Shown here in pieces: positions 12,050 through 17,406 of a stretch of DNA of 17,406 bases. The position numbers and the translations under genes were made by a program. This DNA is from Candidatus Jordarchaeia archaeon (GTDB lineage Archaea > Asgardarchaeota > Jordiarchaeia > Jordiarchaeales > Jordiarchaeaceae). The DNA is taken from positions 1-17,406 of the forward strand of contig JAHQXB010000061.1 in the NCBI GenBank assembly GCA_029856435.1, in the 5' to 3' direction. A model generated the notes under the pieces. The model was not told where the DNA came from. It ran no database searches and saw nothing but the letters and a program-made list of their open reading frames with translations. Position 1 is the first letter of the stretch, and each line of letters begins with the position of its first letter.

Positions 12050-12470
12050 CATGTTTTAGGGTATAAAAATTCAAAAATAGTGAAAAGTAAACCCTTACAA
12101 AATAAAGAATTAGAAGGATACAATAGAAAACACTAATTAAAAACGGATTAAACTCGACCATAAAAAACACAATTTTCAAAAAAACATTCCGAAAAACAAA
12201 AAAATGTGGAAAAAAGGTAATAAAAAACATCACAAACCTCGCATATTAAAACAAAAACCAAAAATATCCCCATAACAAAAAAGAAAAACTAACCATTTTT
12301 CAAGCACAAAAACAAATAAACAGGCCAAAAACCCTCAACCATCCACGCCCACAAGCCCGAATTATAAAAATGTAAGCAGTGGGCACGAACACCCATCTAG
12401 CTCAACTCTTCTAACCAGAAAAAAATAATCAACATACCCAAAAAAATAAGAAAGAGAGACGGAACCGGCT
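12050..12470. repeat. Low-complexity A/C-rich non-coding tract
   Basis: For example 12301-12360 is 51/60 A+C. Runs of AAAAC/AAAAAC with no exact repeat unit and no credible ORF. Confidence 0.6.
12433..12446 (-). terminator. T7-GGGTATG element downstream of amidase B
   Basis: Minus strand TTTTTTTGGGTATG; an identical 14-mer follows amidase A (15493-15506). Confidence 0.45.
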
Positions 12471-15401: not shown

Positions 15402-15492
15402 CTCTCTCCAACAAGTATTAGTATCCTCTCATCACAACTACAAAATAAGCTTTTGCAAAACAAACCAAATTTAGCGCCAAAAAGCGACAAAC

Positions 15493-15506
15493 CATACCCA
15501 AAAAAA
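15493..15506 (-). terminator. T7-GGGTATG element downstream of amidase A
   Basis: Identical to 12433-12446 and preceded on the minus strand by a pyrimidine tract. Confidence 0.45.
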
Positions 15507-15570: not shown

Positions 15571-16986
15571 TTAAATTGGTGGTTTCTTGTCCTGCCAGGG
15601 CAAAACCTTTTCAAAAGCTCTGGATGCTTGAAGCACTCCTAGTTCATCAAAGCGGTTGCCCACAATTTGGAGACCCACTGGAAGCTTGTCCTTAGTGAAA
15701 CCGCAGGGAACCGAGGCTGCAGGTTGACCTGTAAAGTTAAAGGGATAGGTAAAAGCAATCCAGCTCACTGCGCCCACAGGTTTTCCCGCAATTTGGGAGG
15801 GCCCCATCCCCAACTCTAGATTAAAGGCCGGAACAGCGGTTGCGGGAGTCAAAAGGAAGTCATATTTTTCAAAAACTCTCCTGACCTTTTCCCAGAGCTC
15901 TTTCCTGCGATACTGTGTCTTAACGTAGTCGACAGCCTTCAAAGCGTCAGCCAGCCAGAGAAAGTCAAGGTACGGCTTATAGCATACATTCTTCCACTCC
16001 TCTAAACGATCTCCGTAGGCTGCAACTGTTTCTGCAACTACCTGATTCACTAAGTCTCCTTCCATGTTGGGAAAGTCCAGCTTAACCTCCTCCACACCAT
16101 AGCCGGCATCAGCAAAATCGAAAGCCGCCTTTCTAGTAATCTCTAGAACTTCTGGGTCAACCACGGCATATCCTAGGTCAGGGCTGTAGGCGAACTTCTT
16201 TTTCTTGACGCCTTTCTCCAAGTTTTCCAAGTAGCTCACACCAGGTGGGGGCAGTGAGAGATAATCCCTATTGTCGGGGCCAGCCATAACATCCATCATT
16301 AGGGCGGCGTCAGCCACATTTCGGGTAATAGGTCCTTCTGATGCCATTGTTTCCCAGCCTGGTAGAGCCGGCCAACGCGGAATGCGGCCAAGGGAAGGCT
16401 TCAAGCCGAAAACGCCGCAGAGGCTACAGGGAACCCTTATGCTTCCCCCTCCATCGTTGCCCACCGCAATGGGACACATACCCGTGGCCACAGCAGCTGC
16501 GGAGCCGCCACTGGAGCCGCCTGTGGTCTTTGTTCTATCCCAGGGATTCTTGGACGCTCCAAAAAGGGGGTTGTCCGTGATGGGAATTAAGCCGAACTCT
16601 GGAAGATTAGTTTTGCCTAGGATTATTGCCCCAGCGTTTTTTAGCCGCTCCACCAAAACCATGTCTTCCTGCGGAACATAATTCTCGTAGAGTTTGGAGC
16701 CGTATGTGGTGCGGACACCCTTAACTGGAATGTTGTCCTTTATGGCTACCGGTACACCGTGAAGTGGCCCCAGCTTCTTGCGGCTCTTTACCGCCTTCTC
16801 TGCGGCCTCAGCCTCCTTCCGGGCACTTTCCTCGGTTAGGGTGACAAAGGCGTTAATTTCTGGATTAATCTTTTTGATACGATTATAGAAAGCGTCTACA
16901 ACCTCAACTGGTGAAAGCTCTCCCTTCTTTATGGATTTGGCGAGTTCTATGGCACTCATCCAGATGATTTCCTTCTTTTTAGACAT
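15571..16986 (-). CDS. Amidase-signature (Ser-cisSer-Lys) family amidase, paralogue A
   Basis: VAIKDN, GGSSGGSAAAVA and GNDGGGSIRVP; GGAGG RBS at 16997-16993. Gap-free alignment to paralogue B with about 356/471 identities by manual count. Confidence 0.93.
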   Translation of the reverse strand: MSKKKEIIWMSAIELAKSIKKGELSPVEVVDAFYNRIKKINPEINAFVTLTEESARKEAEAAEKAVKSRKKLGPLHGVPVAIKDNIPVKGVRTTYGSKLYENYVPQEDMVLVERLKNAGAIILGKTNLPEFGLIPITDNPLFGASKNPWDRTKTTGGSSGGSAAAVATGMCPIAVGNDGGGSIRVPCSLCGVFGLKPSLGRIPRWPALPGWETMASEGPITRNVADAALMMDVMAGPDNRDYLSLPPPGVSYLENLEKGVKKKKFAYSPDLGYAVVDPEVLEITRKAAFDFADAGYGVEEVKLDFPNMEGDLVNQVVAETVAAYGDRLEEWKNVCYKPYLDFLWLADALKAVDYVKTQYRRKELWEKVRRVFEKYDFLLTPATAVPAFNLELGMGPSQIAGKPVGAVSWIAFTYPFNFTGQPAASVPCGFTKDKLPVGLQIVGNRFDELGVLQASRAFEKVLPWQDKKPPI

Positions 16987-17031
16987 GTGAATCCTCCTTT
17001 TTTGGATGATAGTATAGGAAGAGTTATTGAT

Positions 17032-17212
17032 GTGAACTACCCCGCCCTAACGGACGGGGCTTCCAGCGTTTAGAGTAGGCTTTACGCCCATCTCCTCATC
17101 TGCTGGTTCGGGGGGCTCAGGGCCCCCCATCCCATAGAGCTCGTTACCCTATGGGCTATATTTTTACACACGCATTCAGGTCTCTGTCGTATTTTCTGCA
17201 AGGGAACATTCC
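17032..17212 (-). ncRNA. Putative TnpB omega-RNA (reRNA) scaffold; guide would begin at 17031
   Basis: Stacked stems on the minus strand: CCCATAGGG/CTCTATGGG (17155-17131), GGGGGGC/GCCCCCC (17128-17110), CCAGC...GCTGG enclosing GGC-GTAAA-GCC, then the right-end hairpin. TnpB guide scaffolds are known to overlap the tnpB 3' end and the right end. Expression is not shown. Confidence 0.6.
17082..17208 (-). pseudogene. tnpB: 3' fragment of tnpB (end of Zn finger plus RuvC-III motif), frameshifted
   Basis: GAC AGA GAC CTG AAT GCG (17188-17171) encodes DRDLNA, matching the TnpB DRDxNAxxNI motif. It is preceded by C-S-L-(C)-R-K-Y (one base missing) and followed, after a slip in an A5 run, by NIAHRV...WA* ending at 17082. 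Confidence 0.8.
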
Positions 17213-17235
17213 AAAAACTTTTTAGATTGTAAGAG

Positions 17236-17250
17236 TTATTTAAGTTTAAC
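17236..17250 (-). promoter_or_regulatory. Element-internal BRE/TATA-like sequence (GTTAAAC-TTAAATAA)
   Basis: Sits just inside the left end and points toward the tnpB tail, the right end and the amidase A gene; predicted start near 17212. Confidence 0.45.
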
Positions 17251-17406
17251 CGAATTCATCCCCTCCCTTTCGGAAGGTGTCTTCTTGCGAAGTGTAGATA
17301 AAAATTGTGTTTGTTGACAGTCCACATCTTGAGTGGGGGCTTTTTGCCAGAGGTTTTGTAAGGATTAAGACTTTAAACTAATGAACCAGTCATGGCGACA
17401 TTTGCC

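Follow-up and report, generated by a model that had tools for sequence, protein, structure and literature searches.

A gene-less IS200/IS605 derivative within the probable TATA box of an amidase gene in an Asgard archaeon

Insertion sequences (ISs) that land in promoters, silencing genes or supplying outward-reading promoters, are commonplace in bacteria and haloarchaea. Within the IS200/IS605 family, precise excision and the cleavage of donor joints by TnpB have been published (doi 10.1101/2023.03.14.532601), and gene-less derivatives of the family that carry omega RNAs have been described as palindrome-associated transposable elements, or PATEs (Meers et al. 2023, doi 10.1101/2023.03.14.532601). 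The pentanucleotide TTTAT has been published both as the target-adjacent motif (TAM) of TnpB2 of ISGst2 from Geobacillus stearothermophilus and as the motif flanking the left end of solo-tnpB elements in Sulfolobus islandicus; a literature search found no published link between the TAMs of TnpB proteins and archaeal TATA boxes. Here, we describe a 266-bp mini-element in a 17,406-nucleotide stretch of DNA from Candidatus Jordarchaeia archaeon (hereafter the window, which is all of contig JAHQXB010000061.1 of assembly GCA_029856435.1). The element interrupts what is very probably the TATA box of an amidase gene, amidase A, and the locus is a clean example, in an Asgard archaeon, of a known kind of event, insertion into a promoter. 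A sequence-only reading of the window had proposed that the insertion could act as a reversible switch, and we find no sign of the element working in this way.

The element is a PATE-type, gene-less IS200/IS605 derivative that retains an omega-RNA region. Like PATEs, it contains no protein gene, has subterminal imperfect hairpins rather than inverted repeats, is inserted 3' of a pentanucleotide without duplication, carries its omega-RNA region at the right end, and would rely on TnpA and TnpB acting in trans. Unlike the PATEs of Meers et al. (2023), it resides in an Asgard host, has a copy within a conserved TATA box, and lacks a matching tnpB or tnpA that could be found in the 97.8%-complete assembly. 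With the ISGst2 and S. islandicus elements it shares TTTAT 5' of its left end, which is hence the expected TAM; those elements encode TnpB and the mini-element does not. As in other promoter insertions, a mobile element now lies between promoter and gene and may contribute an outward-reading promoter; it differs from them in that there is no duplication and in that the event is exactly reversible in principle, by the single-strand peel-and-paste mechanism.

The insertion can be read directly from empty sites in related genomes. In a DNA search with positions 16500-17406, three congeneric species match at 90-92% identity, and the matches end exactly at 17031; in one species, G001, the match picks up again at 17298, on the very next base. 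On the minus strand, on which the element and amidase A have the same orientation, the flanks of the insertion read ...CAAACACAATTTTTAT (17313-17298) and ATCAATAACTCTTCCTATACTATCATCCAAAAAAGGAGGATTCAC-ATG (17031-16984), and the sequence-only reading had predicted that they would rejoin as ACACAAKTTTTAT followed by ATCAATAAYTCTTCC. The predicted junction is exact to the base. It is present in three sister species (G001, G003 and G004) and in five further public contigs (Jordarchaeia/Freyarchaeota), which were found by scanning for the junction pattern and all come from the same three lineages. In the three species ACACAA(T/G)TTTTAT is joined to ATCAATAATTCTTCC... with no duplication; the full empty site reads ACACAA(T/G)TTTTAT, then ATCAATAATTCTTCCTATACTATC...AAAAAGGAGGGTTTAC(A/G)TG on the amidase strand and ...GGAAGAATTATTGAT, then ATAAAA(A/C)TTGTGT... 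on the plus strand. Contigs of a G001-like relative in two hot-spring runs also pass from 17031 directly into ATAAAAATTGTGTC. The rejoined empty allele of the source strain would itself read TTTAT followed by ATCAATAAC, with the strain-specific flank bases C at 17023 and T at 17305.

Sibling copies in the source genome (3.54 Mb in 181 contigs, 97.8% complete, with no archaeal small-subunit rRNA assembled but with genes for the TATA-binding protein, which confirm the domain) point to the same mode of insertion. TTTAT precedes the element in all ten left-end flanks, and the right-end flanks are mutually unrelated. The site of the sibling on contig C21 is empty in G003 (TTTTAT joined to TGCTC), and a G001 empty site joins the left flank from contig C16 to the right flank from contig C69, again with TTTAT against the flank, so that those two contig ends represent one insertion. 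At three loci, then, TTTAT directly abuts the right flank in the empty sites of relatives, and the assignment by the sequence-only reading of an IS200/IS605-type insertion 3' of TTTAT without duplication is borne out. A frame test for the left boundary on a PIN-like open reading frame (ORF) interrupted by the C26 sibling was abandoned, as no right-end flank continued the ORF, and was superseded by the empty sites. A search of the five sister species of the genus recovered no member of the element family; it has therefore expanded in the source lineage only, and the empty state is ancestral.

The sequence interrupted by the element has the position and the conservation of a core promoter. The target TTTAT (17298-17302, minus strand) forms the 5' part of a split octamer, TTTTAT plus AT, whose last two bases now stand beside the right end of the element (17030-17031). 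Just 5' of it lie a T-run and ACACAA (17303-17310), a conserved stretch that resembles a TFB recognition element (BRE), and 45 nt separate TTTAT from the amidase A ATG at 16986. These 45 nt (16987-17031) hold a conserved block, ATCAATAAYTCTTCCTATACTATC, the expected start-site region, and a leader with a Shine-Dalgarno (SD) sequence, GGAGG, at 16993-16997; the start site would be predicted about 22-27 nt 3' of the box. In an alignment of four lineages only two columns vary in the 37 nt from ACACAA to CTATC, and ACACAA(K)TTTTAT is invariant; further upstream there are many substitutions and indels, and the synonymous divergence of the gene is 0.27-0.52. All five other congeners (G001-G005) have TTTTATAT or TTTTATAA at -48 to -51 from the amidase start, and the rejoined flanks of the window also carry a TATA-like octamer at the conserved position. 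The two distant congeners, G002 and G005 (72-75% gene identity), have leaders that cannot be aligned, yet CACAAGTTTTATAT stands at -48 in G002 and TTTTATAA at -51 in G005. In a survey of the source genome based on our own rough gene calls, TATA-like hexamers were most frequent between -57 and -55 relative to SD-led starts, and TTTATA showed a 2.6-fold enrichment between -62 and -46; the box of the amidase (-51/-50) lies at the near edge of this peak. Since the upstream gene in G004, although co-oriented, ends some 400 nt away and no divergent ORF is present, amidase A would need a promoter of its own. We conclude that TTTTATAT/TTTTATAA is very probably the TATA box of amidase A, and the claim of the sequence-only reading that the element splits this box, with flanks that rejoin into a TATA box 45 nt before the ATG, agrees with the exact empty sites, which rebuild TTTTATAT 45-51 nt before the start, and with the conservation of the box in the five sister species. 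The start codon itself varies, being GTG in the orthologues of G003 and G004 (L041; L039:1985-1987) and ATG in the source genome and G001, with the SD sequence and spacing unchanged.

The element occupies 17032-17297 on the minus strand, with its left end at 17297 and its right end at 17032, and may be classed as a PATE or a miniature inverted-repeat transposable element (MITE). Its boundaries, with first bases CTACACTTCGCAAG and last bases GGGCGGGGTAGTTCAC, are fixed by an alignment of 10 left-end and 11 right-end junctions from sibling copies (the siblings that identify the element being 94-97% identical to it), and a comparison of the first and last 30 nt found no terminal inverted repeats. 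A subterminal imperfect hairpin lies at the left end (17260-17279), with a C-to-A change private to this copy at 17278, just outside the hairpin; another lies at the right end (17040-17060) and is followed by the cleavage motif TTCAC. Between them, positions 17085-17209 hold a remnant of the 3' end of tnpB (MFPCRKYDRDLNACV..., with a RuvC-III-like motif), identified by tblastn with a consensus tail peptide and by alignment; it comprises 41 codons including the motif DRDLNACVNIA, and its frame is shifted here by an insertion of AA. The region at 17032-17200 resembles an omega-RNA scaffold: the predicted fold of 17012-17215 has an energy of -79.9 kcal/mol (z = -3.96) and leaves the 3' flank unpaired, and at C23:12778-13082 DNA next to the zinc-ribbon of a decayed tnpB matches the scaffold-like region at 74-75% identity. 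Upstream of the scaffold, a TATA-like box, TTAAATAA (17236-17243), nearly invariant across copies, points to the right end and amidase A and is the putative former tnpB promoter. Neither Rfam at gathering thresholds nor a tRNA scan gave a match in the window.

The family numbers approximately 11-14 copies in the source genome. Besides the copy in the window there are five two-ended copies on single contigs and some ten partial ones, at 94-100% identity and many of them at contig ends; one two-ended copy, on C78, is broken up (C78:423-597, L008) by a member of another miniature element family, a repeat of about 171-175 nt of which the source genome holds 13 or more copies (90-94% identity). Of 40 other Asgard genomes searched, 13 contain the right-end motif RGGGCGGGGTAGTTCAC, with as many as 16 occurrences in one genome (G027 and G038; loci L088-L147) and no matches for a reversed control. 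In the source sediment sample (run X1), the summed depth of element-like contig pieces runs into the thousands, as compared with about 60 for the flanks, which indicates that related elements are abundant community-wide, beyond the source genome.

What the insertion did to amidase A is best considered from the two putative promoters that now precede the gene. At the left junction, ACACAATTTTTAT followed by CTACAC, the BRE-like stretch and TTTTTAT (now followed by CT) survive and point into the element, and the internal TTAAATAA box points in the same direction. Between either box and the amidase SD sequence and ATG there is a single T5 run, upstream of the scaffold near the expected start site of the internal box, and neither the scaffold nor the leader contains a T-run. 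With only one T5 in the path, transcripts could read through the 266-bp element into amidase A, which is probably still expressed. The gene is intact (15571-16986, minus strand; 471 aa; full-length match to Pfam Amidase, E = 8e-124) and is under strong purifying selection with no relaxed constraint: omega against the sister species is 0.03-0.06, and codon changes private to the source genome divide into 41 synonymous and 8 non-synonymous, as compared with 45:12 and 57:4 on the sister branches. This copy of the element departs from the consensus of the family by about four changes of its own (~1.5%), and had amidase A been neutral since an insertion of that age, some 16 non-synonymous changes would be expected.

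The sequence-only reading had assigned the effect to a whole cluster, amidase-M28-amidase; of this, only the effect on amidase A appears to stand. T7 and T5 runs that resemble a terminator follow the amidase A stop codon (15479-15506, minus strand), and a separate TATA-like TTATTTT lies 47 nt 5' of the start of the M28 peptidase gene, so that dependence on the split promoter, and with it the effect of the insertion, is likely to be restricted to amidase A and not to extend to the three-gene cluster. The terminator-like motif CCCTTTTTTTGGGTATG occurs after both amidase paralogues (15479-15506 and 12433-12449, minus strand), A and B, which are ~73-76% identical and 3081 nt apart, with the M28 gene between them. 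A neutral-decay test on all three cluster genes (probability of all being intact ~0.02) was dropped, as M28 and amidase B probably each form a transcription unit of their own.

We asked further whether the family as a whole favors promoters, as the sequence-only reading supposed when it held that a TTTAT preference aims these elements at TATA boxes. The source genome has 16,740 TTTAT sites, 58% of them within our own gene calls, and those 30-65 nt upstream of a co-oriented start make up 6.6% of intergenic sites and 2.8% of all 16,740. In this range of distances, which was set before other genomes were examined, fall two of the 11 distinct right-end flanks of the source genome, the focal case (45 nt) and C69 (51 nt). 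Siblings just 3' of gene ends number at least four (C21, C78, C136 and C88), one interrupts the PIN-like ORF on C26, and the remainder lie in longer spacers. Other Asgard genomes contributed 60 distinct right-end flanks carrying RGGGCGGGGTAGTTCAC, 35 of them non-coding; five of the 35 lie at 44-58 nt from a co-oriented start, and for the TTTAT sites that these flanks contain the corresponding figure is 15 of 194 (Fisher P = 0.17). These five of the 60, all at SD-led starts (L113, L117, L118, L121 and L143), had no left end within 330 nt by the pattern used. Pooled with the source-genome siblings and with the focal case excluded, the count is 6 of 45 against an expected 6.6-7.7% (P = 0.07-0.13), and the distance of 20-50 nt at which the sequence-only reading would have tallied siblings gives P = 0.40. 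Across Asgard genomes, with the focal case included, seven of 71 right-end flanks have a co-oriented start 44-58 nt downstream, and the distances 0-43 and 59-95 nt are unoccupied; this cluster was noticed post hoc, with crude ORF calling and among related genomes. The trend is at most about two-fold and non-significant, and we claim no promoter bias.

A switch would also require that the element can leave and return. The element contains no tnpA. Two near-identical tnpA genes (Y1, HUH) lie at contig ends in the source genome (C166:1-600 and C58:1-450; L034 and L035), and their left ends share with the mini-element the layout TTCG.CAAG-hairpin-GGGGATGAATT (TTCGACAAG-hairpin-GGGGATGAATT), but the hairpin sequence differs. 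None of 17 matches to TnpB domains has an element-like tail or 3' flank, although a copy could have been missed in the 97.8%-complete assembly; only decayed tnpB relatives on C23 and C141 match the element tail or scaffold. In contigs of the source sample (run X1) the filled allele is present at the depth of its flanks (61 versus 59), and the empty allele was not found there in contig-level data, in which minority alleles are invisible; the empty junctions in other runs belong to a relative ~92% identical. No RNA run was listed for the stretch, and two runs labelled metatranscriptomic gave contigs of a relative only. The empty-allele check put forward by the sequence-only reading has therefore come out in two ways, with the predicted junction carried by relatives and only the filled allele seen in source-sample contigs. 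The same reading had proposed that the element's own guide would target the restored promoter. The would-be omega-RNA guide (16987-17031) would indeed be promoter sequence, by construction, as in all TnpB elements, but no cognate nuclease was found in the assembly; the match is for this reason probably without consequence in the source genome.

We consider it probable, on balance, that the locus records a one-off and probably fixed insertion that most likely altered the expression of amidase A without abolishing it. By this account a mini-element that still had its two subterminal hairpins, its omega-RNA scaffold and, from tnpB, the former promoter and the final codons would have inserted a single time, in no lineage but that of the source species, on the 3' side of the TTTAT at the core of the TATA box of amidase A. 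In the ancestral state the promoter would have been uninterrupted, as it is in the sister species, with the BRE-like ACACAA and TTTTATAT starting at -51, and excision would give it back base for base, because the family inserts without duplication and excises precisely. The event would be an ordinary, probably fixed transposition rather than a working switch, and amidase A expression would most likely have changed without being lost. Several points weigh against this account. A structured 266-nt leader and a T5 run near the internal start site could strongly cut expression. The age of the insertion rests on four private changes, with a 95% interval of roughly 0.4-3.8%, an imprecision that leaves the argument from constraint suggestive only, and the intactness of the ORF is without power, the probability of its being intact under neutrality being 0.26-0.67. 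The contig-level read data are compatible with a minority empty allele, and the modal TATA position of the genome is ~5 nt further from the ATG than the amidase box.

Some of these points lend themselves to a simpler account, in which the only functional promoter was lost, amidase A is silent or nearly so, and the gene is intact merely because the insertion is recent. The octamer is split, the -50 position is taken up by GC-rich DNA from the right end (GGGGTAGTTCAC), an intact ORF is uninformative at the estimated age, and the paralogous amidase B, 3 kb away, could cover the function. However, the source-genome branch shows no excess of non-synonymous changes (41:8), and the BRE-like stretch and TTTTTAT are kept at the left junction while the internal TTAAATAA box aims at the gene with one T5 between; these features make an OFF state doubtful, and we regard loss of expression as unlikely, if a serious competitor. 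It has also to be asked whether TTTTATAT is the amidase promoter at all, or was rebuilt at the joint as a by-product of an AT-rich target. TTTAT is the target of the family, so that any insertion gives TTTAT at its joint, and in our crude analysis the genome-wide TATA signal is weak and peaks 5 nt further upstream. The present case goes beyond chance because TTTTAT starts at -51 from an SD-led ATG and is conserved in all five congeners, with the box held at -48 to -51 even in the two whose leaders are unalignable; with the G004 upstream gene ~400 nt off, amidase A moreover needs a promoter of its own. A mere by-product is accordingly the least credible of the alternatives, and we give it almost no weight.

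The full model of the sequence-only reading, that a TTTAT preference steers the family to TATA boxes, that insertion and excision turn the amidase-M28-amidase cluster ON and OFF, and that the guide RNA directs TnpB to the restored promoter, appears very unlikely. It was right about the junction and the scarless empty site, TTTAT is part of the TATA consensus of the source genome, seven of 71 flanks do fall at 44-58 nt with none at 0-43 or 59-95, and both precise excision and the cutting of donor joints by TnpB have been published for the family. Against it, the enrichment is ~2-fold and non-significant (P = 0.07-0.13 pooled, 0.17 with the local null, 0.40 at 20-50 nt), the 44-58 nt range was picked post hoc, and for most siblings the insertion is directly past the 3' end of a gene or within a long spacer. 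No intact tnpB with a matching tail or scaffold was found, the two tnpA genes have other left-end hairpins, source-sample contigs carry the filled allele only, and terminator-like T-runs separate amidase A from M28. A looser version, which we hold to be improbable, would be that the AT-rich targets of archaeal IS200/IS605 elements (TTTAT, TTTAA) coincide with the TATA-box core, so that some insertions hit host TATA boxes in a fixed orientation. The BRE and TTTAT at the left end could then drive the element and its guide RNA, a form of promoter capture, precise excision would return the host promoter, and the 44-58 nt cluster would be a trace of this process.

For an IS200/IS605 insertion in an Asgard archaeon, the locus offers the states before and after the event, exact to the base. 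The pair pins down the TTTAT target, the absence of duplication and a well-footprinted Asgard core promoter, and should be a useful reference for promoter annotation and for the prediction of TnpB TAMs in this little-studied group. The idea that AT-rich TAMs make TATA boxes preferred landing sites or switches has behind it a weak, ~2-fold and non-significant trend, and the present case should not be used to support it.

Upstream of the promoter, a candidate divergent gene starting at 17392 on the plus strand, with which the TATA box might have been shared, was rejected, as G004 has no ORF of at least 50 aa there. The stretch 5' of the promoter (window 17330-17406; TTCAACTGCTCCAG..GTT.GCC.TAA.TGG...GGTTTA on the amidase strand) is nevertheless conserved among the sister species (L039:2060-2140 and L040:880-960), and may represent a small ORF or else a non-coding RNA.

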